DNA of 64,000 nt from Candidatus Moraniibacteriota bacterium (lineage in GTDB: Bacteria > Patescibacteriota > Minisyncoccia > Moranbacterales > UBA1568), in the NCBI GenBank assembly GCA_013334575.1, contig JAAXXG010000001.1:143637-207636 (forward strand), given 5' to 3'. The position numbers were made by a program, and so were the translations under genes. Each line of letters opens with the position of its first letter. Positions within the stretch are counted from its first letter, which is position 1. Positions 22,797 through 51,479 of this stretch are shown here, piece after piece. The notes beneath the pieces were generated by a model. It did not search any database and was not told the DNA's origin. It saw only the letters and a program-made list of their open reading frames with translations.

Positions 22797-22808
22797 TAGA
22801 CCACCACT

Positions 22809-24221
22809 ATGGAACACGTCGACACCGTCATTTTCGGAGCCGGACCCGCCGGACTCGCCGCGGCCGGTCGCCTCGTCGGCAAAGGAAAATCCGTCATCGT
22901 CGTCGAGAAGGAAGCGCTCGTCGGCGGCATCAGCAAGACGCTCGAATACAAGGGGTACCGCTTCGACCTCGGCGGTCACCGGTTCTTCACCAAGGCGAAG
23001 GAAGTGAACGAACTCTGGGACCGGACCCTCGGGGACGACTTCATCGAACGTCCGCGACTCTCCCGCATCTACTACCGCAACCGGTTCTTCGACTATCCCG
23101 TCCGCATCCAGAACGTTCTCCGGAATCTCGGAATGGTCGAATCCGCCCTCATATCCTTCGACTACCTCCGCACCAAGCTCATGCCGCATCCGGAAGAGCG
23201 TACCTTCGAACAGTGGGTATCGAACCGCTTCGGACGCCGACTGTTCAATCATTTCTTCAAGTCATATACCGAAAAACTCTGGGGCATCCCCTGCTCCGAG
23301 ATCCAGGCCGAATGGGCGGCGCAACGCATCAAAGGACTGTCGTTCACGAGCGCCATCAGGTCGGCTCTCTTTCCGGACAAGACCGGAAAGATCAAGACGC
23401 TCATCGACAAGTTCCGGTATCCGAAACTCGGACCGGGCATGATGTACGAACGCATGGCGGATGACATCCGCAAGGCCGGCGGAACGATCCTCCCGGAAAC
23501 CGCCGTCATGCAGGTCCATCACGAGAACGGAACCGTGCGAAGCGTCGTCGTCCGCGACCGGAACGGCTCCGAACGGGAAATCTCCGCCGACCGGTTCATC
23601 TCTTCCATGCCGATCACCGAACTCGTAACGGCGCTCTCCCCGGCGGCTCCGGAACATGTCCTCGAAGCCTCCCGCGGCCTCACATACCGCAGCTTCATCA
23701 CCGCGAGCGTCATCCTCGATACCGAGCGTTCGTTCCCGGACACCTGGATCTACGTGCATTCCCCGGAAGTCAGACTCGGGCGCATACAGAACTTCAAGGC
23801 CTGGAGCCCCTACATGGTCGCCGACCCGTCCAAGACCGCTCTCGGGCTCGAATACTTCTGCACCGAAGGCGACGACCTCTGGACCATGGACGACCAGGAC
23901 CTCCTTTCGCTCGCCATGCGCGAACTTGAGGCGATCGGACTCGGCAAGGCGCCCCAGTTCGTCGACGGGTTCGTGGCACGCGTCCCGAAGGCGTATCCCG
24001 TCTACGACGCCGCGTACCCGGAGCGCCTCCGCGTCGTCCGCGAATACCTGTCGACCTTCCGGAACCTGCAACCCGTCGGCCGATACGGCATGTTCAAATA
24101 TAACAACATGGACCATTCCATCCTCACCGGACTCCTCGCCGCCGAGAACGTCCTTGGCGCAAACCACGACATCTGGGAAATAAACGCCGACCAGGAGTAC
24201 CACGAGGAACACAAGAACTAA
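22809..24221 (+). CDS. FAD-dependent oxidoreductase (amine-oxidase/HemY-like fold)
   Basis: 'DTVIFGAGPAGLAAA...VVEKEALVGG' dinucleotide-binding N-terminus. 470 aa. Confidence 0.75.
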   Translation: MEHVDTVIFGAGPAGLAAAGRLVGKGKSVIVVEKEALVGGISKTLEYKGYRFDLGGHRFFTKAKEVNELWDRTLGDDFIERPRLSRIYYRNRFFDYPVRIQNVLRNLGMVESALISFDYLRTKLMPHPEERTFEQWVSNRFGRRLFNHFFKSYTEKLWGIPCSEIQAEWAAQRIKGLSFTSAIRSALFPDKTGKIKTLIDKFRYPKLGPGMMYERMADDIRKAGGTILPETAVMQVHHENGTVRSVVVRDRNGSEREISADRFISSMPITELVTALSPAAPEHVLEASRGLTYRSFITASVILDTERSFPDTWIYVHSPEVRLGRIQNFKAWSPYMVADPSKTALGLEYFCTEGDDLWTMDDQDLLSLAMRELEAIGLGKAPQFVDGFVARVPKAYPVYDAAYPERLRVVREYLSTFRNLQPVGRYGMFKYNNMDHSILTGLLAAENVLGANHDIWEINADQEYHEEHKN

Positions 24222-24234
24222 AGATCCGAAACCT

Positions 24235-26016
24235 ATGCATGCCGCACGCGAACGGATTATCCGCCTGTACGGTTGCATTTCGGAGACGCTCGGACGGATC
24301 CGTCCGGAATTCCTATTCCTGACCCTCGTAGTACCGCTTTCCCTGGCGACGGCCTTCCTGACGCCGCCGCTGCAGGCACCCGATGAGACCCGGCATCTGT
24401 TCCGATCCTGGGGTATCGCAACCGGACAGGTTTTCTGCAGTCCTGGTTCAACGGTATCCGTACCGAAAAACCTTTTTACATTCGCGGAAACGTTCGAAAA
24501 GGGAGTTTCGGACGACGGACTTTTCCGATATTCGATGCTTTCGGACTGGAACCGCTCCGCATCGCTTTCCGGTCCGGAAACCCAGGTCTACACCCAGTTC
24601 TGCTCGTATAACCCGATCACGCACCTCCCGCAGGCCATCGGGATGTTCCTTGCGAATTCGGTCCACGGCTCGGTCGTCTCGACCTATTACGGCGCCTCGT
24701 TCGGAAATGCGATCGTCGCGATTTTCCTGATCTTCCTTGCCATCCGTCTCGTGCCCTTCGGAAAGACCTACTTTCTCCTTGCAGGACTGGCAAGCGGCAT
24801 CATCGGCATCGCGACCACCGTAAACGGCGACGCGCTCTCCATCGGAGGCCTGCTGTTCCTTGCGGCGCTTTTTCTCCGCATGTCGGACGGCAGAACGCTT
24901 GGAAGATACGACCTTCCGGTACTGCTCGCGGCATCGCTCCTGTTCATCCATGCCAAACCGGCATACATCGGATTCACAATGCTCGCGTTCCTGATACCCT
25001 CCCGCGCGTTTCCGTCCAAACGTTCATTTCTCTTTTTTCTCGCGACCTTTTTCGCCGCAAACATCCTCCTGGCGACAGTACTCGCCTCGTATGCCGATAC
25101 CGGATCCTACCTCCGACCCGAGGGAGTCGATCCGGCCGCGCAGGCCACCTTCATACGATCGCATCCCCTCCCGACGGCCGCCCTCATCGCAGAGGAAACC
25201 GTCACGAACCTGCCGCGATATATCGGAGCTAAGACTGGCCGATCCCTTCCCTATTACGCGGCCTTCGCGTTCGTCGTCCTGATGCTCGGCCTCGACGGCA
25301 TCCGTCCTTCCCGGCGCACCCGGATCGCACTCCCGCTGATCGTCTTCGGAACGGCCGCCCTCATCGAACTCTTGGAATACCTGTTTTGGAACGAGCCCGG
25401 CGCATCGAATATCCGCGGCATCCAATCCCGCTATTACTACGGCCTCCTCCCACTCCTTTTCCTCGCGGCCCACGCACCGTTTCGGCGCCTCGGCAGCATC
25501 TCGTTCCCGAACGGGCAGCGAATCATCGCGGTCACCGGCATCACGATTACGGTAGCAGCATCGTCACTCATCGGACTCGACGCGAAATACCACAAGACCC
25601 ATCTCGCCATAATACCGAACGGAACACCGGTTTCCATTGACCTCGGCGAATGCGCCATTAAGACGGACGACCTGTCGATCAGGCAGGACGGATCGGTCGA
25701 GACCCTCGCCGACGGTAACTACGCGGAACTCGACGCCTCGGGTCTCTCCGGCCTATCCTTCGAGACGACCGGAACGGGCGCTATCGGACTCCGCTACCGG
25801 TTCCGCGGGGACGAGAAATTCCCGAAGAAACCGGCCGACGACATACGCTCGACAAAACGCGTCTCCGTCGACCTCGATACGCTCGCCCAGCGGGAGGGTC
25901 GTCCCGTGGACCGGATTCGGATCACGTTTTCCGACAGGCCCGAAGCGTTTTCTGTAAACGGACTCACCGCCTATTACGCCGATTCATCCACATCCTACAC
26001 CTGCGGAAACAGGTGA
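24235..26016 (+). CDS. DUF2142-like integral membrane protein (putative GT-C glycosyltransferase)
   Basis: 593 aa, polytopic, with the N-terminal 'LQAPDETRH' (PDE motif) typical of DUF2142 proteins. Confidence 0.6.
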   Translation: MHAARERIIRLYGCISETLGRIRPEFLFLTLVVPLSLATAFLTPPLQAPDETRHLFRSWGIATGQVFCSPGSTVSVPKNLFTFAETFEKGVSDDGLFRYSMLSDWNRSASLSGPETQVYTQFCSYNPITHLPQAIGMFLANSVHGSVVSTYYGASFGNAIVAIFLIFLAIRLVPFGKTYFLLAGLASGIIGIATTVNGDALSIGGLLFLAALFLRMSDGRTLGRYDLPVLLAASLLFIHAKPAYIGFTMLAFLIPSRAFPSKRSFLFFLATFFAANILLATVLASYADTGSYLRPEGVDPAAQATFIRSHPLPTAALIAEETVTNLPRYIGAKTGRSLPYYAAFAFVVLMLGLDGIRPSRRTRIALPLIVFGTAALIELLEYLFWNEPGASNIRGIQSRYYYGLLPLLFLAAHAPFRRLGSISFPNGQRIIAVTGITITVAASSLIGLDAKYHKTHLAIIPNGTPVSIDLGECAIKTDDLSIRQDGSVETLADGNYAELDASGLSGLSFETTGTGAIGLRYRFRGDEKFPKKPADDIRSTKRVSVDLDTLAQREGRPVDRIRITFSDRPEAFSVNGLTAYYADSSTSYTCGNR

Positions 26017-26032
26017 CGGATACGAAACGAAA

Positions 26033-26076
26033 GCCGACCTCGTCATGTGACGGGCCGGCTTTTTTCTTTTTTTTCG
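26033..26076. terminator. Bidirectional terminator between convergent genes
   Basis: AGCCGaCC-(12 nt)-GGgCCGGCT imperfect stem, followed by a long T-run (TTTTTTCTTTTTTTT). Confidence 0.45.
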
Positions 26077-26088
26077 GAAGAACGGAAA

Positions 26089-26565
26089 TCAGTGATCATA
26101 GCAACAGTCGCAGAACGGACCACTCGGGCAGCCCAAACTTCCGAGTCCCGAAACCGGAACCGTTGCCATAAGCTCCTTGACGGCATCCGGCAACAGGTGA
26201 AGCGCCGCATCGATATCCCCGTCCGTACAGACCTCGCGCACCTCCTTCAGCGGAAGGACTCCCCAGGTTACGAAATAGGCGGTACAGATTCGGGCAAAAG
26301 GCGTCCCGTAGCCCCACCGATACTGATCCCCCGCCTCGTTCAACAGCTTCAGGTGGATCAACCGCTCCAGATCCTCCGCCGTTATGGTTCCGACATCAAG
26401 GAATTCCCTGAGCCTCTGTTGGAAATATAAACCGGAAAGCAGGGTGCGGATCCTTCCCGTCGCTTTATCGTAAAGAAAAGCCACTGCCGACGAAAAACCT
26501 CTCAACTCCGACGGGAGCTCTTCCATAAAGATCGGATTCCTGAAATACGGCTTCTTGTTTTCCAT
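26089..26565 (-). CDS. Hypothetical protein with a Cys-rich C-terminus (CPSGPFCDCCYDH)
   Basis: 158-aa ORF at the left edge of the low-GC cassette. No family recognised. Confidence 0.45.
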   Translation of the reverse strand: MENKKPYFRNPIFMEELPSELRGFSSAVAFLYDKATGRIRTLLSGLYFQQRLREFLDVGTITAEDLERLIHLKLLNEAGDQYRWGYGTPFARICTAYFVTWGVLPLKEVREVCTDGDIDAALHLLPDAVKELMATVPVSGLGSLGCPSGPFCDCCYDH

Positions 26566-26844
26566 GGTCCACCTGCCTTTTCCGTATGATGTTTATAAAA
26601 AGTACCGCCACTACCGTACCAGAAAAAGACCGAACTGTAAAGGATGTCACCGTTCCGACAAGAGCCAACTCCATCATATGGCAAGTCGGTTTTTTTTTCG
26701 AATCATCAGAATATAAAAAGAAAAATTTGATACCATCAACGAATGAAGCAGGTATCCATAAGAATCGACATTATTCTGGAATACTCCCACGCAAAAATAA
26801 GCCCGATTCGGCTTCAAGAAATTTTTAAAAATATCAAATTTCCC

Positions 26845-26873
26845 TTGATTTAAAGGTCTATACAGCATATATT
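26845..26873 (+). promoter_or_regulatory. Promoter candidate for gmd
   Basis: TTGATT (26845-50), 17-nt spacer, TATATT (26868-73) in a 340-nt AT-rich region upstream of the ATG at 26908. Confidence 0.35.
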
Positions 26874-26907
26874 AGATAAGAAGCTGTAATAACCTGTTTC
26901 TACGATA

Positions 26908-27957
26908 ATGAAAGCCCTCATTACAGGTATAACCGGTCAAGACGGTTCGTATCTCGCAGAACTCCTACTCAAAAAAGGGTACGAGGTTCACGGCATCATA
27001 CGCCGATCAAGTTCGTTCAACACCGACCGAATCGACCATCTCTACCAAGACCCTCACATTCACGGTGTCAAACTGTTTCTCCATTATGGAGATTTGGCAG
27101 ATAGCAGCAACATCAGCCGACTAATCGAGAAAATTCAGCCGGACGAGATCTATAACCTCGGCGCACAGAGCCATGTCCGGGTCAGTTTCGACGTTCCAGA
27201 ATATACAGCCGACACAGACGGGATCGGCACCCTTCGCATCCTCGACGCCATAAAGGAGGCTAAGCTCAAAACGAAATTCTACCAGGCATCAAGCAGCGAA
27301 CTCTACGGCAAAGTAGTGGAGACGCCTCAGACTGAAAAGACGCCGTTTTACCCGCGTTCTCCGTATGCGGTCGCAAAGCTCTACGCGTACTGGATTACCG
27401 TAAACTACCGTGAAAGTTACGGGATATTCGCATGCAACGGAATCCTATTCAATCACGAATCCCCTCGTCGCGGAGAGACTTTCGTCACCAGGAAGATCAC
27501 ACGAGGTTTTGCTCGTATACTTTCCGGAAAGGAAGATTGCCTGTACATGGGAAATCTGGAGGCAAAACGCGATTGGGGCCACGCCCGAGACTACGTCGAA
27601 GGAATGTGGCTAATGCTACAGCAAGAAAAGCCGGACGATTATATCCTCGCTACCGGCGAAACACACTCGGTTAGAGAATTCATCGAAGAATGCGCAAAAG
27701 TTGCCGGGATCGATCTCTTTTGGAAAGGAAAAGGCCTTGAAGAAATCGGCGTCGATCGGAACACAAAAAAAACAATCATCCGTATTGATCCAAAATACTT
27801 CCGCCCCGCTGAAGTAGATCTTCTTCTTGGAAATCCTGCTAAGGCAAAGCGACTCCTAAAATGGAAACCAAGAGTGACATTCAAGGCTCTCGCCAAAGAA
27901 ATGATGCGAGCCGACATGGAAAATGAAGGGATACCGTGGATCAAAGACACCGTATAA
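26908..27957 (+). CDS. gmd: GDP-mannose 4,6-dehydratase
   Basis: '[21 protein letters not shown]' together with '[20 protein letters not shown]' and 'NHESPRRGE', the canonical Gmd signature blocks. Confidence 0.95.
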
Positions 27958-27958
27958 T

Positions 27959-28888
27959 ATGAGAAAGGATTCGAAAATCTATGTTGCGGGACATCGCGGT
28001 CTAGTTGGATCCGCGATTACGCGAAAGTTGCAATCCGAGGGATTCGCGAATCTACTGTTTCGTTCAATAGATGAGCTGAATCTGATGGACACGGTCGCGG
28101 TCAATGATTTTTTTAGGTCCGAAAAACCGGAATATGTATTTCTGGCAGCAGCCAAGGTCGGTGGCATCCTAGCCAACGATACCTATCCTGCAGATTTTAT
28201 CTATCAGAATCTCGCCATCCAGAACAACGTTATCCATGCGGCGTACGAACACAATGCAAAAAAACTGCTCTTTCTCGGAAGTTCCTGCATCTATCCACGA
28301 GACTGTCCTCAACCGATCCGAGAAGACTCTCTCCTCACCGGCCCGCTCGAGAAGACTAACGAAGCATACGCAATAGCCAAAATTGCGGGAATCAAGACGT
28401 GTCAGGCGTTTAATAAACAGTTCGGAACAAGATTCATTTCTGTCATGCCGACGAACCTCTACGGACCGAATGACAATTTCGACCTCGAGAGCTCACACGT
28501 CCTCCCGGCCCTCATCAGGAAGTTTCATGACGCCAAACTCTCTGGAGCGAGCGAGGTTGTCATGTGGGGAACAGGCTCACCGAAGCGCGAATTCCTTCAC
28601 GTGGATGACCTTGCGGATGCATGCATCTTCCTCATGAACACGTACGACGAGTCCGAAATTGTGAACATCGGAACAGGAGAAGACGTTACTATAAGACAGT
28701 TAGTAGAACTAATACGTGATATCGTCGGATTCAAAGGACAGGTCGTCAACGATACGACCAAACCGGACGGAACACCAAGAAAACTCCTCGACGTATCATA
28801 CCTCCACTCGCTAGGATGGAAACACTCCGTCACACTGAAGGAAGGCATCCAAAAAACATACGAATGGTATCTCACCTCAAGAAAATAA
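27959..28888 (+). CDS. fcl: GDP-L-fucose synthase (GDP-4-keto-6-deoxymannose 3,5-epimerase/4-reductase)
   Basis: '[15 protein letters not shown]', 'YAIAKIAGI' and 'NLYGPNDNF'. Starts 2 nt after the gmd stop. Confidence 0.9.
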
Positions 28889-29845
28889 CTTCCTAAACCG
28901 ATGTTTGATTCGTCCAATCAGCTCCCATCCTCCGGATTTTCTGATCCTATCAAGCTCCACCAGTAACGCGGTATTCCGATTTTGGAAATCCGAAACGTCA
29001 CCGTCATCCTTCACGGTCGGAATTTCAGACCGAACGGATCGCTTCAGAAATCGGTCTTTCCTCGTAAGTATCCATGCCAATCGATAGGCTTGACTCAGGA
29101 TTTTCCATTCCCACGACCCGTACACCGTATCCAATTCGGTCTGAAGTTGCTCGCCGTACTTCCGAAGTAACCCGATATCGGTCACGCTCCAGAATGACGA
29201 GCGGTTCGACAGATTCAGCTGATAAAACCGGGATTCCTCATCGGACTCATCCCCGCTCTCGTACCAAGGCAGGTGTCTCGCGACATAAGGAAAACCGGTG
29301 CGGATAGACTTCCACCATCGCTTCTCGCTCGGACGGATACCCGGGCGATACAAAGCGAACGTCGTGTCGATAGGTGCGTCATAAAGCCCCGTTTCTATCT
29401 CATTCGTCCAAAAGCAGCTCTCCCAGTCCGTCACGGAACGCTTGAAAACGTATGCGTCTGGCAAGTCATCGATCCGCAGTCCGAAACCGACCTTCGTGAC
29501 ATCCGGATATCGGTCGAGAACATCGGAAAAGTACGATATGGCATCGAGCGGGCAGAGCGCATCAGGAACGACATCACAGTCGGTAACGACATACCTTTCC
29601 CGGTCGATGACATCGGAAAAGGCGTTACTCTCCCAGACGACCAGATGACCGAAGTTCCTGTCCATGCGGTGCACGGTATGTCCGCACGAGTAAAGATACG
29701 AAAGGAGTGGCGGATAAGTCGATGCATTGTCGACGATGCGGATATCCGTATATCCGGAAGCTTCCAGCCACGAGACAAGCGCCCGAAGATACTTCAGGCG
29801 ATTGAATGAAACGATGAAGACCGGAATATCGTGATACGGTTTCAT
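28877..29845 (-). CDS. Glycosyltransferase (GT-A-like, family not assigned)
   Basis: '[20 protein letters not shown]' nucleotide-sugar transferase-like N-terminus plus a DxD-like 'TDCDVVPD'. 322 aa, low GC. Confidence 0.55.
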
Positions 29846-30564
29846 GAAACCAGCCTGCTTTTTGCGTACGCCCGAAAATCGCCAATTAACCTACCCGGAA
29901 GACCGACCTCCCGCCGAGCCCTCGCATTCTCGATCATTCGCCTCCAAGGATGCGAAGAGCTTGCGCCGTCCATCACGAAATTCGAGAACACCCTATCAGA
30001 AACGGCGACCGAGACTCTTCCATCGTGGAACGCCCTTAGACAGAACAGATAGTCGGCAGCGATCGGAAAACGCTCGTCATACGGACCGAAACGGTCATGC
30101 AGATCCTTTCGGTACAGGAGGGAGGGGTGTTGCATTGGTAGCATGGGCAGATCAGAGGGAGACGACCATACGACCGACGACGTGCGACGGTCACGACTCC
30201 AGACACTCGTTTTTCCGTATATCGCACCGACACCCGGACACTCATCCAAGAGCGTAGTCGCAACAGAAATGGTCTCGGGGTCCAACCAGTCACCCGCGCC
30301 GATGACATTCACGTATTCCCCGGTCGCCATACGGATACCCTTGTTCATCGCGTCGTAGATACCGTGATCCGGTTCGGAAACCCACAGAAGACGACCCGAG
30401 AACCTCGGCTCGTACGACCTGATCACATCCACGGTTCCGTCAGTCGATCCCCCGTCGACGATCACGATTTCGAACGCCTCGCTATCCTGCGCCAGAAACC
30501 CGTCAAGAGTGACTGGAAGCAGCCCCGAGGAGTTCCTAGTGCAAATAACGCAAGAAATCTTCAT
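29842..30564 (-). CDS. GT2 glycosyltransferase
   Basis: 'ISCVICTRN...FEIVIVDGGSTDGT...DAMNKGI' with 'GAGDWL'. A 4-nt overlap with the downstream gene. Confidence 0.85.
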   Translation of the reverse strand: MKISCVICTRNSSGLLPVTLDGFLAQDSEAFEIVIVDGGSTDGTVDVIRSYEPRFSGRLLWVSEPDHGIYDAMNKGIRMATGEYVNVIGAGDWLDPETISVATTLLDECPGVGAIYGKTSVWSRDRRTSSVVWSSPSDLPMLPMQHPSLLYRKDLHDRFGPYDERFPIAADYLFCLRAFHDGRVSVAVSDRVFSNFVMDGASSSHPWRRMIENARARREVGLPGRLIGDFRAYAKSRLVS

Positions 30565-30565
30565 A

Positions 30566-31573
30566 CTAAATTTTCTTTTCCCTTCTCAAAGCATAGTAAA
30601 CTTTTCGGACTGGTTGCCGAAGCCAAGAATGCAAAATTTTCGTGTAATATTTTTTCAAAAATTTTTTTGGGGAAAAAATGACAAAACCTATGTTCAAGCT
30701 AATTCTAGAAAAATTTTTTCGCACTGCGGGTAAAAACTCATACAAAAAATATGCCTGAACAATTGAACATCCATGAACATGACTCAAAATACCAAGGGGT
30801 AATCGCTTCGTCGCTCGAATTCTTCTACACGTATCAATATCAGTTACAGAAATCGTATTATAATACTTATATAATACTTTTGCCGCTTCTTCATCCCCCT
30901 CATATATCAGCTCGGTGGACATTCCGGAAAGACGATATGTTGTAAATATCCGATCAACAAAAACGCTGTCGTATTTCCGAATAACGAGACGTAAAATTAA
31001 ATCCAAATCACCCATAATTAATAAACTATCATCAAACATCCCCTCCCGAAGCAAAACATCCCTTCGAGTAAACATCGTCTGATGATTAAAGGGTGATGCG
31101 GAGAAAAATACGCTGCTGAGATCCGGATATACTACCCACTGACAAGATTTTTTTTGATCTAAAATTTTTGCCGGAGCATAAGAAAATGCTGCTCCCGATC
31201 TCTCGAGCGCTTCAACCGACCACTCAACTCCATGCAAATCGTGCCAATAATCATCTGAATTAAGAAAAACAACATACTTTCCGCGAGCATGCATAATCCC
31301 CTTATTCATCGCGTCATATATGCCTCTATCAGGCTCTGAGATATACCTTAGCCTCTTATACTTCCTGACACATGACGCAAGAAGGTCCGCCGTTCCATCG
31401 TTCGAAGCGCCATCAATAACAATATGTTCTATATTCTGGTACGTTTGCAGATGCACCGATTCAACGCTCTGTAAAAACGTCTCCTTTCTGTTATTCCTAA
31501 TCAGGTTAAAAGTAACCGTCACAACGGTTACTAATGGCAGATTCTCATGATCAATGCGCCTGTCTTTTTGCAT
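30566..31573 (-). CDS. GT2 glycosyltransferase
   Basis: 'VTVVTVTFN...HIVIDGASNDGT...DAMNKGI...NSDD'. Start uncertain, either 31573 or 31633. ~37% GC. Confidence 0.8.
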   Translation of the reverse strand: MQKDRRIDHENLPLVTVVTVTFNLIRNNRKETFLQSVESVHLQTYQNIEHIVIDGASNDGTADLLASCVRKYKRLRYISEPDRGIYDAMNKGIMHARGKYVVFLNSDDYWHDLHGVEWSVEALERSGAAFSYAPAKILDQKKSCQWVVYPDLSSVFFSASPFNHQTMFTRRDVLLREGMFDDSLLIMGDLDLILRLVIRKYDSVFVDRIFTTYRLSGMSTELIYEGDEEAAKVLYKYYNTISVTDIDTCRRIRATKRLPLGILSHVHGCSIVQAYFLYEFLPAVRKNFSRISLNIGFVIFSPKKFLKKYYTKILHSWLRQPVRKVYYALRREKKI

Positions 31574-32834
31574 AAACTTCACGATAGAGATCTGCGTATT
31601 TCTCGAGACACTTCTTTTGTGTAAATTTCTCAAGAAATCTATCTCGAGCCGCTATAGACGCCCTTCTTCTAAGGGCTTCGTCGGCCAAAAACAGATTGAT
31701 ACCTCTCATGAAATCATCAAAGTCTAAATACTTTGCAAGATATCCGGAATTCATATGATCAATCTCTTCCGGAACACCTCCAACATGGAAACTAACAACC
31801 GGAAGAGCGCAGGCCATCGCCTCTAAAACAACGAAAGGCAAATTATCGGCCATGGTTGGAAATATAAATAAGTCCGCAGCAGAATAATACTCAACCAGGC
31901 GTGCCTTATCATAGACGTATCCGCGAGTCATCACGTTCGGATAATCCAGTTCCCCATCATGACCGACGACCAAAAACAAGACGTCCTCCAGACATGTCAT
32001 CTTCTCGATCGCGCGTAAAACATATCCGCCCCCCTTCTGCGGATTATGTACAGATCCATCAGCAAGAAACAGTAAAATCTTTTTGTCCAGAGGAAGGCCT
32101 AATCGTTTCCGCGCGGCCCGCTTATCAATGGGACGCCAAACCTCTTCATCAATTCCATTGTAAATCAGACGGATATCTTTCGCCCCAAGCATACTTCTTG
32201 AAACACGCTCTTTCAACCATTGTGACGGCACGACGACCGTAAAATCTGACTCGTCATAAATTGTTTTTTTCAGTCTCCATAGATAGCCAGTCGAATCTCT
32301 CCTGAGACTCGGATAGTATGATAAAGCCGGACATGACCCACACCCACTGTGCCATCGTTCGCATGAGAATGAGTAAGCGCAGTGACCAGTAAAGCTTTGT
32401 TCGTCATGCAGCGTCCATATCGTTGGCTTTCTAGATGTTAACAACGGAAGCACCTTTGGATTGATATAATCCCCATGAAGATTATGCAAATGAAGTACGT
32501 CTGCTTCTTGAAAAAAATCGTGCGCCAAAAGATTGTCACTATCATGATGTAAGTCCAGCAATCCAAACCATCGATAATAATTTTTTCGCACTACCTGCCA
32601 CCACGAATGATTCTTCCTAAGAACGGCTACCTTTGCATCATCGAGAACTTTCGATTCTGCGCATATCATATATGTAAGAAACCCAAGGCGCCGCATTCCA
32701 ACGCAAAGCATATCGTAAGCCGCACGAGCCGCCCCACCATGTCCTGCAATAGTATTAACAATCAGCACTCCCTTTGGGTTCGAGGTCGCTGAATTATTGC
32801 TGGCATCAAAAATGGAATTTCGAAACTCATCCAT
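31551..32834 (-). CDS. GT4 glycosyltransferase (GT-B)
   Basis: The C-terminal 'GGVPEEIDHMNSGYL' E-x7-E region and 'LPVVS' are typical of GT4. Confidence 0.85.
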   Translation of the reverse strand: MDEFRNSIFDASNNSATSNPKGVLIVNTIAGHGGAARAAYDMLCVGMRRLGFLTYMICAESKVLDDAKVAVLRKNHSWWQVVRKNYYRWFGLLDLHHDSDNLLAHDFFQEADVLHLHNLHGDYINPKVLPLLTSRKPTIWTLHDEQSFTGHCAYSFSCERWHSGCGSCPALSYYPSLRRDSTGYLWRLKKTIYDESDFTVVVPSQWLKERVSRSMLGAKDIRLIYNGIDEEVWRPIDKRAARKRLGLPLDKKILLFLADGSVHNPQKGGGYVLRAIEKMTCLEDVLFLVVGHDGELDYPNVMTRGYVYDKARLVEYYSAADLFIFPTMADNLPFVVLEAMACALPVVSFHVGGVPEEIDHMNSGYLAKYLDFDDFMRGINLFLADEALRRRASIAARDRFLEKFTQKKCLEKYADLYREVYAKRQAH

Positions 32835-32886
32835 AGAAAATCACTCGCTATCCGAACAACCGGCTGGCTAAAAAATCATCTGATTA

Positions 32887-33780
32887 CTACGTAGATTTTA
32901 ACCATTTAGTCACGGATACGCATATTCGCCGAAAAAGAGTCTTTTTTTTCAGGCCGAAGGTATTCTCGTATGTCCATTCGACCTCCTTCATATTTAACTC
33001 AAGCCTCCTAGGATGTAAAATCTCCCCCATCTCATAAGTAGGTAAATTAAGATGAGGATCGTCGCCAGAATAATGAACGCCGTAAACGCCAATATTTGAA
33101 ACAAGATTCTTTGAAGGATTTATACAGAGCCCTTTTTCCTTAAGGATTGCGTAAGTCCATTGGTAATCCCAGACATTATCTTGCTCCTTTTCCATTTTTT
33201 GAAAGATATCTGACCAATATTTGGCGACTTCCTGCCGAGCAAAAGCCTCTTTATAGTTCAATTCTTTATGGTCTTTTATGTGATACTCAAACGATTGCCA
33301 CCGGTCAGCCCATGTCGCCCACCCCCAACAGTGCTCAATCTGCGCAAAATAATAGCTCGCACTACTTCGAAATTTCTTATTAAAATTATTACCGGAGATA
33401 TGCCATACCCGCTTCTCATCGGAATAATAATCAAGCAATGTCTCGCAGAACCTAAAGAAGTCTTCGTGAGGCAGGCAATCATCCTCTAGGATTATTCCGT
33501 CTTTTTCATGCTCAAAAAACCAAGATATACCGCCAGAAACCGCCTTTCCACATCCAAGATTTTTATCGCGAAATAAGGTATGAACTTCACATTCCCAATC
33601 GATACCATCTATAACAAGCTTTCTAACCCGTTCAACAAGCTCCTTCTCGCCTTCTATATTTTCTCGAGCGCCGTCGGATGCGACATACATGCGCGACGGA
33701 CGGACGGCGCGAATAGCCTGAAGCACTTTTAAAGTTGTCTCTGGCCGATTGAAAATGACTAATAAAACCGCTTTTTTCAT
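32887..33780 (-). CDS. Putative nucleotide-diphospho-sugar transferase (GT-A-like)
   Basis: 'KAVLLVIFNRPETTLKVLQAI...DGARE' N-terminus and 'EDDCLPHEDFF'. Low GC. Family assignment is tentative. Confidence 0.5.
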   Translation of the reverse strand: MKKAVLLVIFNRPETTLKVLQAIRAVRPSRMYVASDGARENIEGEKELVERVRKLVIDGIDWECEVHTLFRDKNLGCGKAVSGGISWFFEHEKDGIILEDDCLPHEDFFRFCETLLDYYSDEKRVWHISGNNFNKKFRSSASYYFAQIEHCWGWATWADRWQSFEYHIKDHKELNYKEAFARQEVAKYWSDIFQKMEKEQDNVWDYQWTYAILKEKGLCINPSKNLVSNIGVYGVHYSGDDPHLNLPTYEMGEILHPRRLELNMKEVEWTYENTFGLKKKTLFRRICVSVTKWLKST

Positions 33781-34580
33781 AATTGCCCTCTCCCAAATAT
33801 CAAAGTCCTCCTTGTTCGAGCAAGAACGCTATAGCCACGCTCCCTCAAAAAATTATACTCCTCCGTTTCTTCATATTCCATAATATCTCTATCAACAATA
33901 TCGAGAGCTTCTACAAGCAAAAAGTCCGGTCTATAAAGATCCCAATCAAGCGATTGTAATATTACATAGTCTAACCCTTCAACATCCAGGTTCATGAAGT
34001 CTATTTTTTTTCCTTCTGGCACGTACTGCTTAAGCAACTCATTAATATTCAATGTTCGAATAGACTCCTTACCTAGAAGCTCCCACCCCTCACGAATTCG
34101 CAACTCGCTTATCTCTTGATTAAAAGAGTTTAGAGCTGGCTCGCGAAAGCTATAATATTGCAACACTCCTCCTACTTCAGAAATACCGGCTTCGATGTTT
34201 ATATCGTGCACCCTTTTTCTATTGAAAAGCTCCATAGATCCTGGAAGGGCATCTATATTGATCCCGCTCCATCCGCGTTCATAATAATACTGCGTATTCG
34301 AATACCTATAAGGATGAAAAGCTCCTATATCAACATAGAATCCTTTGTACCCTGGAAGTGACTCATAAAATGCCGCTAAAACTATATCTTCCCCATCTTG
34401 CGAATACGATCTCCTAGAGTATCGAAAACGCTCGGACTCGTCCAGGTTTTCTACGCTTTTTTTTATCTCATTAAAATCTGCGATGGCTTCCTTCATCTCG
34501 ACTATCGCATCATTAACCGAAAAAAGCTTCTCCTCTAATCCGCGAAAATAATCTGGAATTCGTTTTAAGGGATTCTTCAT
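33777..34580 (-). CDS. FkbM-family SAM-dependent methyltransferase
   Basis: 'YSQDGEDIVLAAFY...GFYVDIGAFHP' is the FkbM signature. It lies adjacent to wzt, as terminal-capping methyltransferases do in ABC-transporter-dependent O-polysaccharide pathways. Confidence 0.8.
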   Translation of the reverse strand: MKNPLKRIPDYFRGLEEKLFSVNDAIVEMKEAIADFNEIKKSVENLDESERFRYSRRSYSQDGEDIVLAAFYESLPGYKGFYVDIGAFHPYRYSNTQYYYERGWSGINIDALPGSMELFNRKRVHDINIEAGISEVGGVLQYYSFREPALNSFNQEISELRIREGWELLGKESIRTLNINELLKQYVPEGKKIDFMNLDVEGLDYVILQSLDWDLYRPDFLLVEALDIVDRDIMEYEETEEYNFLRERGYSVLARTRRTLIFGRGQL

Positions 34581-35836
34581 ACTCTTTCTTTGAACTCTTT
34601 TACTGCCATCTCGTAATCAAAATCTATCGGACTCCAATTCACACGGTCGCTAAAGACCTGAATTTTTGCAATTGATTCTCTTGCGTCAAGAACTTCGAAC
34701 TTCGCGTGTGACTTTACATCCGCAGTTGCAACATAGACATTATACGAACCAGGCGCAAGAAGCATCTCACCGGATATGGTACATTCCAATGCAGTACCCT
34801 TGGCAACCTCTCCATATCTTAGAGGTTTCCTTGAATATAAGCTGTGAGCGCCATAAACGTCCCTCCCGAAATTATCTTTAAACATCAGTTCGAAAGTTGG
34901 ATTCGAAACACTCGAAAGATACTTGATAATGATTTTTACGTAGAATTTTTTTCCTGTCTCTAAGACGAAGGTCTGATCATGCGAGCTATTTTCAAATACA
35001 CAGGACTGAATTATAGCTCTCTTGCTGCCCGCATCAGAATGAAGATCGACTTTCTCCTGTTCCATGATCTGCACTTTCATCCGCCTCTCTTCTTCGGACA
35101 TGTTTATGTCCATGTACCTGTAAATAGCCTGTTTTGAATCTCCGATAAATTCCATTTTTCCTCCATTTAAAAGCATCACTCTATCACAATACTCGCCAAC
35201 AGTCTGAATATCATGAGAAACAAGCACAACTGTTTTCCCTTTTTTCTTGTATAATTCGAACTCATTAATGCATTTCGCCTGGAAGTTGGAGTCGCCGACG
35301 GCGAGGACCTCGTCCATGAGAAGGATGTCGCGGTTCGCGTGGATGGAGACCGAGAACGCGAGGCGGACCTGCATGCCGCTCGAATAGTTCTTGAGCTTCT
35401 GGTCGATGAACCGGCCGAGTTCGGAGAATTCGACGATCGAGTCGAACTTTTCGTCGATCTGTTTCTTGGTCATGCCGAGGACGGTCGCGTTGAGGTAGAT
35501 ATTGTCGCGGCCGGAGAGTTCCGGATTGAACCCGATGCCGAGCTCGAGGAAGGGCGAGATGAGACCGTTCGTACGGACCGTTCCCTTGTCCGCCTCGTAG
35601 ATGCCGGCGAGGATCTTGAGGAGGGTCGACTTGCCGCTGCCGTTGCGGCCGATGACGCCGAAGAACTCCCCCTTCTTCACCTCGAAGGAGACGTCGTCGA
35701 GCGCCTTGAACTCCTCGAAGGTGCGCTTTCCCTTGAGCGCGCCCACGAACGCTCCGCGTATCGAAGACACCTTCTCGTGCGGAATGCGGAAGGTCTTGGA
35801 GACGTTCTTGACGCTTATGGCGATATCCTGGTCCAT
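34577..35836 (-). CDS. wzt: O-antigen/teichoic-type polysaccharide ABC exporter ATP-binding protein with a C-terminal carbohydrate-binding extension
   Basis: Walker A 'GRNGSGKST', signature 'YSSGMQVRL' and Walker B 'ILLMDEVLAVGD', followed by a ~170-aa C-terminal beta-rich domain. GC composition switches from high (5' 560 nt) to low (3' 700 nt) inside the gene. Confidence 0.85.
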   Translation of the reverse strand: MDQDIAISVKNVSKTFRIPHEKVSSIRGAFVGALKGKRTFEEFKALDDVSFEVKKGEFFGVIGRNGSGKSTLLKILAGIYEADKGTVRTNGLISPFLELGIGFNPELSGRDNIYLNATVLGMTKKQIDEKFDSIVEFSELGRFIDQKLKNYSSGMQVRLAFSVSIHANRDILLMDEVLAVGDSNFQAKCINEFELYKKKGKTVVLVSHDIQTVGEYCDRVMLLNGGKMEFIGDSKQAIYRYMDINMSEEERRMKVQIMEQEKVDLHSDAGSKRAIIQSCVFENSSHDQTFVLETGKKFYVKIIIKYLSSVSNPTFELMFKDNFGRDVYGAHSLYSRKPLRYGEVAKGTALECTISGEMLLAPGSYNVYVATADVKSHAKFEVLDARESIAKIQVFSDRVNWSPIDFDYEMAVKEFKERV

Positions 35837-35962
35837 TCCCCTATTCTACCCCATTCCGAACGTTCTTCCCAGTCAGACGGACAGTTGACAAAATATCGGG
35901 AAAAAGCCATATTAAGGAGCTGTTTCAAAACATTCATCAATCTATCCCGCAAGGAGGCTTCT

Positions 35963-36631
35963 ATATCGCTTCAACCACCGAAGGACTTACCCCGCATCCA
36001 AAAACTTTCCCACCGTCGTCTGGACATCGGTAAGCCCATCATCCTCTGGACGAAAAAGGATCCCTATTATGGAAACGGGGTCGGATTCCGCTACGCAATC
36101 GCTGACGCCGATCCGAAAACCGGAACGCCCGCCACCTGCCGAATCGTACTCGCATCCAATCATCCGGACCTCGTTCTCGGCAAGGCGTATGCAGCGACCG
36201 TCGAAGCCGTAAAGTGGCCCGATAAGCCATGCTGGATGCGTCGATACGATAGACCCTCAGTCGAGATCTCCTACCTGTCGGTCTTCGATGTGACCCCGGT
36301 GCCGATCTACGAAACCATCCGGATCTTCGAGACCGAAGCAGCCGTCTATACCTGGACCGACGGTTATCTCATCTCGGAGCACCGGATCCCGATCACGAAC
36401 CGACGGAAGGATTTCCGTTATGACAACCGGGTGGTCAGGACGATCGAGTATTCCGACTCGTATGGCACCTTCCGCCGGGACGAACTACCGCCGGATACGG
36501 ATATGTCGACATACGGACCAGAGGATTTCGATGCTCTTCCGGAACTGACCGACGGGCAGCATCGCACTCTTGGAAACTTCTTCGTCACCCCGAGAAACTT
36601 TGTTCTGAGAAACGGAAAGCCGCCGGCGTAA
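35963..36631 (+). CDS. Hypothetical protein; start codon uncertain
   Basis: High GC3 coding signal from ~35990 to the stop at 36631. There is no in-frame ATG. Candidate starts are ATA at 35963 (SD AAGGAGG 5 nt upstream) or TTG at 35885. The tool ORF (from 35339) runs antisense through wzt and is not believed. Confidence 0.4.
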   Translation: MSLQPPKDLPRIQKLSHRRLDIGKPIILWTKKDPYYGNGVGFRYAIADADPKTGTPATCRIVLASNHPDLVLGKAYAATVEAVKWPDKPCWMRRYDRPSVEISYLSVFDVTPVPIYETIRIFETEAAVYTWTDGYLISEHRIPITNRRKDFRYDNRVVRTIEYSDSYGTFRRDELPPDTDMSTYGPEDFDALPELTDGQHRTLGNFFVTPRNFVLRNGKPPA

Positions 36632-36647
36632 ATCGCGGGCGGCTTTT
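36619..36647 (+). terminator. Intrinsic terminator
   Basis: GCCGCCGGCG-(5 nt)-CGCGGGCGGC then TTTT. The stop codon sits in the loop. Confidence 0.45.
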
Positions 36648-36755
36648 GACATTCCGAAACTTCCGCAAGAACAGGCGACTCGGCATCCGACCTATCGCGA
36701 CGTTCGGATATTTCCCGATACGATCACTCCGGAAAGAGCTCCGAGGCTTGTGGGT

Positions 36756-37364
36756 CTAATTACAGTACGCGACGCACGTCCCCGTAAGGTACGCGCCGAC
36801 TTCCCGGACGATCACATCCCGAACATCCGGAAACAGCGCGAAGAAGGTTCCGATCGGATCGAACGATATCGCGTCGGTCATCGGCGGACCGAGGGAACCC
36901 GTATTCAATTCGACGGCTCCCGGAACGACCAGCGGAGCGATCGACAGATCGGCCTTTCCCGGAACATCGGAACGGACGGTCTGAACGGCGAATCGGTATC
37001 CGAGGTACGTGCCGGAACGAAGTCCGCGAAACACGCCATCGAACTCGTCCGGGGTCAGACACGTCGTCGGCTCGGATACGCCGGCACAGCGTACGGTCAT
37101 CGCGGCAACGACGAAGAAATGCGTCGACTCAGGCATATCAAGGGCATACCTGCCCAGATGCGACAAGGTCCCCAAAATCGCATACTTCAAGAAATCGACG
37201 GGATTGTCGAGTCCTGAGTCAGACTCGCCACTCGGCAGGATAGACAAAGACGGCAACGTATGCGACTCGTCGATCACGTGTGTATACGCCCCATCCCTGA
37301 AACAGGCTCGGATGGCCGCCTCGACCGGGCCGATGGGATACGGAAGAAGAAAAGTGAGGTTCAT
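36756..37364 (-). CDS. Hypothetical protein
   Basis: ~200-aa ORF with coding-like GC3. Start taken as MNLTFLLPY. No family recognised. Confidence 0.4.
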   Translation of the reverse strand: MNLTFLLPYPIGPVEAAIRACFRDGAYTHVIDESHTLPSLSILPSGESDSGLDNPVDFLKYAILGTLSHLGRYALDMPESTHFFVVAAMTVRCAGVSEPTTCLTPDEFDGVFRGLRSGTYLGYRFAVQTVRSDVPGKADLSIAPLVVPGAVELNTGSLGPPMTDAISFDPIGTFFALFPDVRDVIVREVGAYLTGTCVAYCN

Positions 37365-37508
37365 GACCGGTGGGTTTTGAATTGATGTGAAGGCACTGCC
37401 TCCAGCATCCCGCATCCGGACGATTTGTCAATACGACACACGCCATCGGATACGAAAAAGGAGGCCCCGGTGATTCCAGAAGCCCCCTCTTATAAGCTTA
37501 ATCGCCTG

Positions 37509-38246
37509 TCACGACAGCGCGGATTCCGCGACTTCAGGCAACTGATCCTCGACAGCCTCAGTCGGTATCGCAATCACGTGCGATTTCAAAAGACCGTAAC
37601 AGCTGAAAATTTCATCCAACGAACCCCTCAGCTCGTTTAACAGACGGAAATCGCCATCCGATCCAGCAGCATACGACGAAAGACGGATCACATCGAGAGG
37701 TGCCGACCGGAAGTGCTCCATCCGGATAGACGAAAGATCCGATGGCTCGATAGTCTTGACGGTCGTTTCGAACGTCAATATATCGAAATGACATTTAGCC
37801 GCACCGGCCGGAAGTATCGCAAGGCCGACATTCACGACGCAAGTCTTCCCGGAAAGCATCTGGATGAGCGAGACGGCTTCCTCCGAATTCGGAAAAAATA
37901 CCGACTCCATAAACAGTCCAGTCCCCTTGACCATGATACGTACCGAGGTACCCACCAGCACTTCTTCCGGGCAATCCTCTCCCTTGTTCCTACGGCTCTT
38001 TGCCAGTCTGTGCACTGCCGCTTCCGCGCGACGTTTCATGCCATTGAGTCGACAATCCTTTGCGTCGACCCGTCTTGTTTTCTCGGGATATTTTGAACCA
38101 CTAACCTGACATCCGTACGAGGAAAGAAGGCTCGAGACAAAACCGGACACCTCGCCTCCGACATGAAACGGGGTCTTTACCCTGATTTCCAAAAGCTCCG
38201 CCGTACCAGTACCGCCTCCTGGTATCATTTCTTTTTGTTGCGACAT
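37509..38246 (-). CDS. Hypothetical protein
   Basis: ~245 aa (MSQQKEMIPGGGTGTAELLEIR...). The AT-rich upstream region places a TTATAT -10-like element 3 nt before the ATG, so the transcript may be leaderless. No family recognised. Confidence 0.4.
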   Translation of the reverse strand: MSQQKEMIPGGGTGTAELLEIRVKTPFHVGGEVSGFVSSLLSSYGCQVSGSKYPEKTRRVDAKDCRLNGMKRRAEAAVHRLAKSRRNKGEDCPEEVLVGTSVRIMVKGTGLFMESVFFPNSEEAVSLIQMLSGKTCVVNVGLAILPAGAAKCHFDILTFETTVKTIEPSDLSSIRMEHFRSAPLDVIRLSSYAAGSDGDFRLLNELRGSLDEIFSCYGLLKSHVIAIPTEAVEDQLPEVAESALS

Positions 38247-38425
38247 ACGATATAAATCTAGATTTTTAAAGAAGAAAGAACAAAAACACCTCGCGAACAT
38301 ACCACGCGCCGACATCGGCGTCAACCATCCCCGACCGTGTCCGGTTGACGGGATCCGCCCGTCGTCGTATGGTAGAAGGCTCTTTCACAGGCAGTATCAA
38401 CCACAACCCCAAAAAGGAGTACCTC

Positions 38426-39124
38426 ATGGAACGCGGTTTCAGTGCGGAACAGCGAAGCGTATACGAACTCGATCGGACACTCGAGCTCGAAGTGAGACGA
38501 CAACTCGGGAGATACCGGGTTCCCGAAACAGCCAAGACCCGTCACTTACGGAATTTTCCGAACGACCCTGAAATCACCTATTCCGATTCTGTCCTTGTTC
38601 CGCTCATCACGGACGGAAGGAACCGTATCGTGCCGTTGGCAGCCGGGTTCGATTCCGACCCACTGATCGAGACCCAGGGACCGTCGCTCCACATTCCGAT
38701 ACTCGATCTGCGCGGACTGAAGAGGAAAATCGGAGCGGTCTGCATCGGCACGGTAAGAAAGATCATCATTTCAACACGAGAGATACGCCAACCGGAATCG
38801 CTTCAGATCATCGAGTACATTCTGCAAGATGTCCAACCGACCGGCAGCGGATTGATCACCGGATTTTTCCGGCGTGATTCCGATCTGATACAAGAAGAGC
38901 GGCAGCTTTTCAGCCATGGGATACATCTTCTGACTTTCGTCCGCCAATACCTGACAGACGGGATTCCGTCACACGCGCTCGACCGCCTTCCTCAATGGGA
39001 CGACGCCCGCCAACGGGTACGGCAGATACACTGCACGCGACTTCCGGACTTTTCCGACAAGTCCGTCCGCAGACGGGTACTGGATCAGGTAAACGGGAAA
39101 GAACCCACCCTGGTTCCGGTATGA
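38426..39124 (+). CDS. Hypothetical protein
   Basis: Start at MERGFSAEQ with SD AAAAGGAG 6 nt upstream. 232 aa. No family recognised. Confidence 0.5.
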   Translation: MERGFSAEQRSVYELDRTLELEVRRQLGRYRVPETAKTRHLRNFPNDPEITYSDSVLVPLITDGRNRIVPLAAGFDSDPLIETQGPSLHIPILDLRGLKRKIGAVCIGTVRKIIISTREIRQPESLQIIEYILQDVQPTGSGLITGFFRRDSDLIQEERQLFSHGIHLLTFVRQYLTDGIPSHALDRLPQWDDARQRVRQIHCTRLPDFSDKSVRRRVLDQVNGKEPTLVPV

Positions 39125-39244
39125 TATGAACCGAAAAAGCAAGGGGCCTGACCGCGTTCAGGCCCCTTTCGCCGTTTCCAGGCCTCGTTTATGCTATACT
39201 TCCGGCAGGATAGGCCGTTCATCCGACAGATTTCCCACACCGTT

Positions 39245-41247: not shown

Positions 41248-41392
41248 GATAACCTCCTGATTGTTAATGTTCTCGAAGAAGATACTGTGGTCATTGTGAC
41301 TGTTCCCGCGGACACGTCAAGCCGCGACGGAACACCATCGGAACGAAACGACAAGTAGCCGGAATCGAAACAGCTTCCGGTCTTCGTGGAAC

Positions 41393-41425
41393 AAAAAAAG
41401 CACCCTCGAGAAGTTCTCCCGAGGG
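41393..41425 (-). terminator. Intrinsic terminator after the 41448-41918 gene
   Basis: On the minus strand CCCTCG-(10 nt)-CGAGGG followed by 7 U (the A7 run at 41393-99 on the plus strand). Confidence 0.5.
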
Positions 41426-41447
41426 GCTTTATATTTTCGACGAACCG

Positions 41448-41918: not shown

Positions 41919-42125
41919 AGTTGTCTCCTTTTTTCCGTCCGGAGTGATCCCCGGATCGGTGAGGATTCGTTGGTAAGGTACTTACCGCGCCAGCATGAAG
42001 CCTATCTCCATGTGACTCTATATTTTATCACCTTTTTTAATTTGTGTCAATGTCAGAATATTGTCTCCAAAAGGCGGGTCCGGCCCGTTTCACTTTCCAG
42101 GATTCCATAGTAGAATGGGAGGACT

Positions 42126-51422: not shown

Positions 51423-51479
51423 ACTTTTATTCTTTCATAAAGATACCTTCGAATCTTGAAGGGAATAATTACTTCTTCC

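Follow-up and report, generated by a model that had tools for sequence, protein, structure and literature searches.

The 64,000-nucleotide stretch of Candidatus Moraniibacteriota DNA analyzed here (hereafter the window) contains a cassette of surface-glycan genes led by wzt, the gene for the ATPase of a Wzm/Wzt-type ABC exporter, and one edge of that cassette lies inside wzt itself. A sliding-window profile (300 nt) placed GC content at 0.56-0.65 until ~26.3 kb, at 0.36-0.43 between 26.45 and 26.9 kb, at 0.45-0.57 across 26.9-30.5 kb and at 0.34-0.48 across 30.5-35.3 kb, after which it regained 0.59-0.61 at 35.3-35.75 kb; the remainder of the window is mostly at 0.53-0.63. This profile (0.58-0.62 falling to 0.34-0.57 over 26.6-35.3 kb) bears out the original prediction, made from the sequence alone, of a GC drop from ~26.57 to ~35.28 kb, and the composition of the cassette is atypical of its genome. 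By GC content at third codon positions (GC3), the cassette consists of two blocks, with values of 0.38-0.42 at 30566-35290 and 0.53-0.63 at 26908-30564, which makes it a mosaic of modules. The prediction had also named an outcome under which there would be no island, namely that all glycan genes are similarly AT-rich. Within the window this is not the case: four PMT_2 GT-C enzymes, a Bac_transf enzyme, a DUF2142 protein and an amine-oxidase-like gene keep a native GC3 of 0.70-0.84, and AT-richness is therefore not a general property of glycan genes.

The wzt gene (34577-35836, minus strand) is one intact reading frame of 419 aa with all ABC motifs present. An ABC_tran match at residues 46-177 (E 1.7e-20) and readable Walker A, signature, Walker B, D-loop and H-loop sequences identify the product as an ABC ATPase, with a nucleotide-binding domain (NBD) followed by a carbohydrate-binding domain (CBD) at residues 268-396 (Wzt_C, PF14524; 68.7 bits against a cutoff of 30.4; E 6.7e-19). 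The best PDB matches were Aquifex aeolicus Wzt, TagH/TarH and mycobacterial RfbE/Wzt, with residues 39-379 aligning to full-length A. aeolicus Wzt (8dku/7k2t) at E 1.6e-68 across both NBD and CBD; the best NCBIfam matches were TagH and galactan Wzt, all under their equivalog cutoffs. In 20-codon windows GC3 was 0.80-1.00 over codons 1-190 and mostly 0.25-0.45 from codon 191, with a bump at about codons 231-270, so that the uniform codon usage which would have spoken against a chimeric gene was not found. Instead, wzt divides into a resident 5' part of 546 nt (codons 1-182; 35291-35836, minus strand; GC 0.60, GC3 0.90), which encodes the N-terminal gate-helix region, Walker A (GRNGSGKS), the signature (YSSGM), Walker B (ILLMDE) and the D-loop (LAVGD), and a cassette-borne 3' part of 714 nt (codons 183-419; 34577-35290, minus strand; GC 0.40, GC3 0.42), which encodes the H-loop (SHD), the hinge region and the Wzt_C CBD. 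These measurements agree with the predicted chimera of ~560 nt of high-GC and ~700 nt of low-GC DNA, and the switch, which had been placed just downstream of Walker B, sits directly after the D-loop codons at 35290/35291.

NTW45586.1, from a Candidatus Moranbacteria metagenome-assembled genome (MAG), has the same sequence as the window Wzt protein, and a second MAG of the same submission series (GCA_013336155.1, contig JAAXUE010000002.1; hereafter the sister, locus L001) provided the most informative comparison. Alignment of the window to L001 by blastn gave 98.8% identity at 35291-40645 (5.4 kb), 98.6% identity at 22075-26646 (4.6 kb) and none between; the DNA between these flanks, 8,644 nt in the window and 5,647 nt in the sister, is non-homologous. 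The right junction (35290/35291) falls between wzt codon 182, the Asp of the D-loop, and codon 183, and the end of the blastn alignment at 35291 coincides with the GC3 step. Pairwise alignment across the ATPase gene showed 130 identical columns ending in ...GCCGTCGGCGAC (LAVGD), with ~62% of positions matching thereafter. The left junction (~26646/26647; blastn end 26646) is intergenic and upstream of a conserved 158-aa open reading frame (ORF), where homology to the sister picks up again at CATCCTTTACAGTTCGG, from ~26650 downward.

The sister ATPase (P0021, accession NTW14925.1) has 251 aa and lacks Wzt_C; its first 182 residues are 99.5% identical to the window Wzt, after which it diverges, and its gene becomes AT-rich at the same nucleotide as the window wzt. 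The remainder of the sister cassette encodes a GT9-family enzyme, a Methyltransf_11 protein and four heptose-pathway enzymes (a cytidylyltransferase-like protein, a GmhB-like phosphatase, a PfkB kinase and an SIS isomerase), and it is likewise AT-rich, with GC of 0.36-0.46 beside the ATPase 3' end, rising to 0.48-0.58 over the sugar-nucleotide genes. Both alleles share one layout, a wzt-led operon running into a convergently transcribed nucleotide-sugar module. Non-homologous alleles therefore occupy the same chromosomal position within conserved flanks (further alleles lie in the syntenic loci L003 and L004). This supports the predicted junction in wzt at which the substrate-recognition half and the serotype-specific genes are swapped together, with entirely different cassettes between flanks that are 98.6-98.8% identical; one refinement concerns the GC switch itself, which probably does not mark where a single recent import crossed over.

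The gene content of the window cassette agrees with the earlier description for gmd, fcl, an FkbM-family methyltransferase and three glycosyltransferases (two GT2 and one GT4 by Pfam), while a fourth glycosyltransferase lacks family support. On the plus strand, gmd (GDP-mannose 4,6-dehydratase, 26908-27957; TIGR01472, 591.7 bits against a cutoff of 415) and fcl (GDP-L-fucose synthase, 27923-28888; NF047922, 508 bits against a cutoff of 500) follow a cassette-specific AT-rich intergenic segment (26647-26907, GC 0.36-0.43) whose left edge is the left junction. The fcl gene is transcribed convergently to the wzt operon, all of which lies on the minus strand. Within that operon, the start codon of the FkbM-family methyltransferase gene (33777-34580, 267 aa; Methyltransf_21, E 1.3e-11) overlaps the wzt stop codon, and this pairing of Wzt_C with Methyltransf_21 recurs in L003, L007 and L098; the enzyme is a candidate chain-terminating (capping) enzyme. 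It is followed by a 297-aa protein (32887-33780) with no Pfam, NCBIfam or PDB match, which belongs to a large unnamed family (10,765 representative clusters at E up to 0.001) whose members occur as fusions with methyltransferases (FkbM and others) and with GT1/GT2 domains. A single-sequence AlphaFold2 model of it was unusable (predicted local distance difference test, pLDDT, 38), and it may plausibly be a fourth glycosyltransferase or a capping partner.

Further along the operon lie a GT4 glycosyltransferase of 427 aa (31551-32834; Glycos_transf_1, E 1.6e-21; Glyco_transf_4, E 9.5e-12; GC3 0.41), a GT2 glycosyltransferase of 355 aa (30566-31633; Glycos_transf_2, E 7.1e-22; GC3 0.38) and a second GT2 of 240 aa with near-native composition (29842-30564; Glycos_transf_2, E 4.1e-21; GC 0.56, GC3 0.63). 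The 355-aa enzyme is WcaE-like, WcaE being its best NCBIfam match, below cutoff; its ORF is read from a TTG codon, and translation may in fact begin farther downstream. The two GT2 genes are WcaE-like paralogues that share a 44-nt motif with 75% identity, and the difference in GC within this tandem pair (0.56 against 0.39 across 29842-31633) suggests different ages or origins inside the cassette. The final gene of the operon encodes a 322-aa protein (28877-29845, GC3 0.60) with no family assignment: it had no Pfam, NCBIfam or PDB match, and its single-sequence AlphaFold2 model (pLDDT 35) was unusable. The closest relatives of these modules sit in wzt cassettes on contigs of GC 0.30-0.45 from low-GC Patescibacteria. 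The L098 contig carries homologues of the Wzt C-terminal part (41% identical), the FkbM enzyme (59%) and the 297-aa protein (50%), and L021 carries gmd (77%) and fcl (74%) at the distal end of a wzt cassette, convergently oriented as in the window.

The two parts of Wzt were compared locally against 121 retrieved proteins. Residues 1-182 were 72-91% identical to more than 100 Patescibacteria Wzt proteins, residues 183-250 were 43-64% identical to relatives, and the CBD reached at most 46%. The expectation that the two halves would hit different lineages failed here insofar as they do not come from different phyla; both are of the Patescibacteria-type Wzt family. A separate search with residues 183-419 returned two matches, with 39% and 32% identity, the word index not reaching such a divergent domain. 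In L003 and L004 the RecR-DnaB-CysS...wzt synteny is kept, with housekeeping genes at 74-84% DNA identity, and a third and a fourth cassette follow wzt. Every high-GC relative examined had a GC3 step inside wzt. Among the loci with such a step, L001 and L007 have it at the codon where the window wzt switches, and in L003, L004 and L005 it comes 40-70 codons later. Because the sister switches at the same nucleotide and the relatives step at the same codon or 40-70 codons later, the switch point is probably a standing boundary between the resident and the cassette-borne parts of the gene, and not the crossover of a single import.

A scan of a genome collection with the Wzt N domain, using one genome per species, gave 80 loci, of which nearly all carry the name Moranbacteria, Parcubacteria, Paceibacteria or Saccharibacteria in their titles; the species itself was not among the results, the best match being 88% identical. 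Across the 46 Moranbacteria-like loci, the CBD and downstream genes had a GC3 ~0.10 below that of the upstream flank (Wilcoxon p ~1e-8), and the wzt 5' part lay slightly above the flank (+0.04, p = 0.02). The step in the window is the most extreme because this genome is unusually GC-rich for its clade while the cassette pool is AT-rich. A metagenome scan with the 27-mer preceding the junction yielded seven contigs, all from unrelated high-GC organisms (69-75% identity), and no further alleles of the species.

Two observations on the 5' part of wzt stand apart from these comparisons. In L005 (970-2208), and also in the low-GC loci L022, L029, L032 and L051, the wzt 5' part is markedly GC3-richer than both its own genome and the 3' part, reaching a GC3 of 0.81 in L005 in a context of 0.38-0.44 GC; the GC-rich 5' part in low-GC relatives may be mobile between lineages or may reflect GC-biased gene conversion. 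In addition, Wzt N domains 78-88% identical to those of Moranbacteria occur in MAGs titled 'uncultured Bdellovibrionales' or 'Gammaproteobacteria' (L011, L015, L021, L028, L030, L046, L049 and L061); the contigs have a GC of 0.3-0.4, and their taxonomic labels may be unreliable.

No wzm gene, encoding the partner permease, had been seen where it was expected upstream of wzt, and this holds for the whole 64 kb window: tblastn with the Wzm proteins of two relatives found none, and none of the window membrane ORFs of at least 120 aa had an ABC2_membrane match. Nor did tblastn find wzm within 10 kb of wzt in L001, L003 or L004. The place expected for wzm, directly upstream of wzt, is occupied by a divergent 247-aa ORF (35888-36631, plus strand; an equivalent 248-aa gene is present in the sister), which had no Pfam match and was not among the ORFs flagged with at least three predicted transmembrane segments. 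Four consecutive ORFs of 219-271 aa, conserved in the sister and without a Pfam match, lie between wzt and cysS at 35888-39124.

Searching for wzm elsewhere in the genome, as had been proposed, indicated that it is unlinked and not missing, the window-genome copy being assigned by the proximity of its accession. A relative's Wzm as query recovered a 258-aa ABC2_membrane protein (P0172), recorded in identical form for both genomes as NTW45741.1 and NTW15204.1, accession numbers that come 155 and 279 after those of the respective Wzt proteins, NTW45586.1 and NTW14925.1. In the sister, wzm is an orphan gene of native composition (GC3 0.79) on contig JAAXUE010000004.1, between a T4SS-pilin-like gene and CorA and with no adjoining ATPase; positions on the two contigs put it at least ~65 kb from wzt. 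We also surveyed the distance between the two genes in the N-domain-scan loci plus L001-L007, where 5.6-10 kb were available per locus and distances are approximate. Among loci with at least 72% N-domain identity, wzm was adjacent to wzt in 27, lay 0.9-9.7 kb upstream on the same strand in 14, and was not present in the available 5.6-10 kb in 11. Among the informative loci below 72% (Saccharibacteria and a few other phyla), wzm was adjacent in 24, with none upstream and none lacking it. Uncoupling of wzm from wzt is thus a clade trait of Moranbacteria-like genomes.

The left-hand anchor of the cassette consists of the conserved 158-aa ORF (26089-26565, minus strand; 95% protein identity to the sister) together with DUF2142 (24235-26016), and the wzt 5' part is the anchor on the right. 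Differences between window and sister are concentrated beside the cassette, with 22 at 26000-26250 against a background of 1.2-1.4% in this comparison of two genomes. Within the wzt 5' part, a patch of nine single-nucleotide polymorphisms (SNPs) at 35621-35687, at which the sister has variants in common with L007, may be a small gene-conversion tract. The 330 nt preceding the right junction are 100% identical between window and sister. Pfam and NCBIfam searches found no integrase, transposase or recombinase domains in the cassette, no direct or inverted att-like repeats were found flanking it, and there are no tRNA genes in the 64 kb window. Given these absences, the SNP clusters beside the cassette, the nine-SNP patch and the identical 330 nt before the junction, we infer that cassettes are exchanged by homologous recombination. 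Switching between the expressed locus and silent cassettes within one genome was also considered and was dropped for the window, in which neither a second copy of the anchor nor silent wzt fragments were found.

Elsewhere in the window, a Bac_transf polyprenyl-phosphate sugar transferase of native composition (49148-50569, minus strand; E 6.7e-62; GC3 0.84) is a candidate initiating enzyme, with a putative link to the cassette. Large membrane proteins are concentrated at 558-8143 and 19875-21281, four of them with PMT_2 (ArnT/PMT-like GT-C) domains and one more without a confident family; an LPG_synthase_TM protein lies at 9202-10152 and, like its large membrane neighbors, has native GC. The PMT_2-type and neighboring membrane proteins may act outside the cytoplasm, as transferases working with lipid-linked glycans after their export. 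At the 3' end of cysS, the sister carries a ~1.5 kb insert (L001:3681-5193) encoding a 362-aa retron-type reverse transcriptase (PADLOC RT_III-A/II-A, E ~1e-39) and bounded by a ~30-nt direct repeat, GTCCTTGGCGAGGACCGAGTCGCGGA; the window is without the insert (40615-40645), and L003 has an RVT_1 gene in the same place. Two other AT-rich patches were noted, one at 51030-51974 (GC 0.44 for 51-52 kb) with small predicted membrane ORFs at 51030-51422 and 51480-51974 (GC3 0.44-0.47), and a short one at 41300-42000 (GC 0.41-0.51) with a 156-aa ORF (41448-41918) that has no family assignment and is also present in the sister genome.

Taken together, these results point to an O-antigen-like, strain-variable cassette locus for a Wzm/Wzt-type surface glycan, exchanged by homologous recombination, with a resident Wzt core and a portable H-loop, hinge and CBD; we put the probability of this reading at roughly 0.8. 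Under this proposal, Gmd and Fcl would supply GDP-L-fucose, and the two GT2 enzymes, the GT4 enzyme and probably the 297-aa protein would build a lipid-linked glycan. The FkbM enzyme, with the 297-aa protein, is predicted to make a chain-terminating methyl cap, which the Wzt CBD would read before the polymer leaves through Wzm. The resident part would comprise wzm and wzt codons 1-182, including the elements expected to dock on Wzm and to bind ATP, while the H-loop, hinge and CBD, as the elements that would recognize the glycan, would travel with the biosynthesis genes. Homologous recombination between the conserved wzt 5' part and the opposite flank (the 158-aa ORF and DUF2142) would swap the cassettes, which would come from a pool shared with mostly low-GC relatives in the Patescibacteria. 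Wzt proteins without a CBD, like TagH, export in a cap-independent mode, and the sister allele would do likewise. Because the conspecific heptose-type allele has such a CBD-less ATPase, the same Wzm and NBD core would serve both a CBD-dependent and a CBD-independent system.

Several points weigh against this proposal. ABC ATPases normally lose conservation past the D-loop, and part of the contrast between the N- and C-terminal parts of Wzt is ordinary rate variation. The sister cassette has a methyltransferase although its ATPase is without a CBD, so that the link between methyltransferase and cap is not exclusive. No high-identity donor cassette was found (41-59% at best for the Wzt C-terminal part, the FkbM enzyme and the 297-aa protein, 74-77% for gmd and fcl). 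We infer from accession proximity that NTW45741.1 belongs to the window genome. Finally, the window and all comparison loci are metagenome assemblies.

Other explanations of the block were weighed against the same evidence. It is unlikely that 35290/35291 is the actual crossover of one recent import from a low-GC donor, such that the window allele would be the newcomer and the junction unique to it. The step is very sharp, and the cassette GC of 0.39-0.44 equals that of the low-GC relatives with the nearest module homologues, as such an import would have it; however, divergence and AT-richness set in at exactly this nucleotide in the sister allele too, the step in L007 falls at the corresponding codon, and those in L003, L004 and L005 come 40-70 codons later. 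The identity of the 330 nt before the junction fits an exchange of alleles inside the population, the crossovers falling anywhere along the shared flanks, and the cassette is itself a mosaic in GC3 (0.38-0.42 against 0.53-0.63). We regard as very improbable an assembly artefact in which the DNA of two organisms was joined through conserved wzt 5' sequence: at its far end the block leads back into the same syntenic high-GC flank, which would take two misjoins that compensate each other, wzt is one unbroken frame with all motifs, and the same architecture recurs in independent assemblies (NCBI, ENA and Logan), even though the source is a MAG and the wzt 5' part, at 78-83% DNA identity among relatives, is a conceivable bridge.

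Insertion of a mobile island by site-specific recombination, whether through an integrase and att sites, an integron-like system or a transposon, would account for the atypical GC and the discrete boundaries of the block, but one of these boundaries lies in-frame inside the coding sequence of an essential domain and homologous coding continues beyond it. With no integrase, transposase or recombinase domain, no flanking repeats and no tRNA in the window, we give an island very little credence. The chances are just as slim that no transfer took place and that the cassette diverged in place under AT-biased mutation or selection on surface-glycan genes. Such a process is compatible with glycan cassettes that are AT-richer than their flanks family-wide, and AT-rich clusters have been described likewise for S-layer glycan and lipopolysaccharide (LPS) (PMC2943079), but it is contradicted by a gene content that differs (fucose versus heptose, CBD versus none) between flanks only 1.2-1.4% apart; AT bias in place could survive only as an explanation for the AT-rich composition of the shared cassette pool.

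The exchanged-cassette reading can be set beside known export systems, of which the A. aeolicus WzmWzt transporter (PDB 6oih, 7k2t and 8dku) is the best solved homologue, with NBD and CBD both aligned. Between its NBD strands 1 and 2 lies an extension, the gate helix, which packs on Wzm at the entrance to the channel (PMC6379404). Its CBD dimer docks on two NBD helices, the C-terminal hinge helix and the H-loop helix, and the CBD together with hinge-helix Tyr233 forms a pocket for the 3-O-methylated terminal sugar (PMC9445017). Unlike the window gene, A. aeolicus wzt is a contiguous native gene beside wzm, and its CBD sequence is only weakly similar to that of the window. As the window splice point falls after the D-loop and before the H-loop, it would separate the elements that match Wzm and bind ATP from those that read the glycan.

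In the O-antigen systems of Escherichia coli O8/O9a, where Wzm is interchangeable too, and of Klebsiella/Raoultella, the NBD is conserved and interchangeable and the CBD is variable (PMC9445017, introduction). There the module boundary is taken as the NBD-CBD linker and wzm and wzt lie together in the cluster, whereas here the boundary is inside the NBD, after the D-loop, and wzm is on another contig; the window locus also differs in having an alternative allele without a CBD and in its host, a bacterium of the candidate phyla radiation (CPR). Cuthbertson and colleagues (2005, 2007) are reported to have found that the CBD in the E. coli and Klebsiella/Raoultella systems recognizes a cap, methyl or phosphomethyl, that a terminator enzyme such as WbdD places at the chain end. 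LPS would not be expected in CPR bacteria.

The common polysaccharide antigen TET operon of Pseudomonas syringae also has conserved and variable parts: wzt, the wbdD methyltransferase and the wbdA glycosyltransferase are shuffled between strains via recombination or through horizontal gene transfer, the trees of the variable part are incongruent with the core genome, and there is no integron signature (PMC7820976). In P. syringae, however, the boundary lies between a conserved wzm and the adjacent wzt, while here it is inside wzt and wzm is unlinked. A further comparison is with the S-layer glycan (slg) clusters of the Gram-positive Geobacillus and Paenibacillus, which are Wzm/Wzt-dependent without LPS, have a cluster GC below that of the genome with the central strain-specific glycosyltransferase genes lowest, carry nucleotide-sugar genes at the far end and overlapping start and stop codons, and have a 2-O-methyl cap proposed to be read by Wzt (PMC2943079). 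The window locus is alike in these respects, its own cap being a predicted one, but differs in that slg clusters have wzm and wzt together at the cluster head, with no intragenic wzt boundary described. Conserved-NBD/variable-CBD Wzt proteins, cassette replacement and AT-rich Wzm/Wzt-dependent clusters with methyl caps are thus already known. What is different here is a boundary inside the catalytic domain, an unlinked wzm, the presence of a CBD that differs between 98.7%-identical genomes, and a CPR host. A literature search found no paper mentioning wzt together with Moranbacteria in the searched library.

We tentatively propose, as a possibility that goes beyond the exchange of cassettes, that the locus is a plug-in exporter in which wzm and the wzt core are fixed and every cassette carries only the 3' part of the ATPase (H-loop and hinge, with or without a CBD), completed in-frame by recombination. 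Conspecific strains could then switch glycan and export mode at once without Wzm incompatibility, and this arrangement would have evolved by way of the gradual uncoupling of wzm from wzt seen across Moranbacteria. The locus is also a natural experiment on the modularity of ABC exporters, as a single Wzm and a single NBD core appear to be shared by two glycans, one exported with a CBD and the other without. The natural splice point past the D-loop agrees with the structural work that places the hinge and H-loop helices in the glycan-recognition site, and it suggests a cut site for engineered Wzt chimeras. CPR bacteria are tiny, mostly uncultured and thought to be host-attached. Their surface glycans likely decide host recognition and phage susceptibility, and almost nothing is known of glycan variation among them. 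The present locus shows strain-level glycan switching at a genome difference of ~1.3%, with the logic of O-antigen serotype replacement operating in a CPR bacterium.

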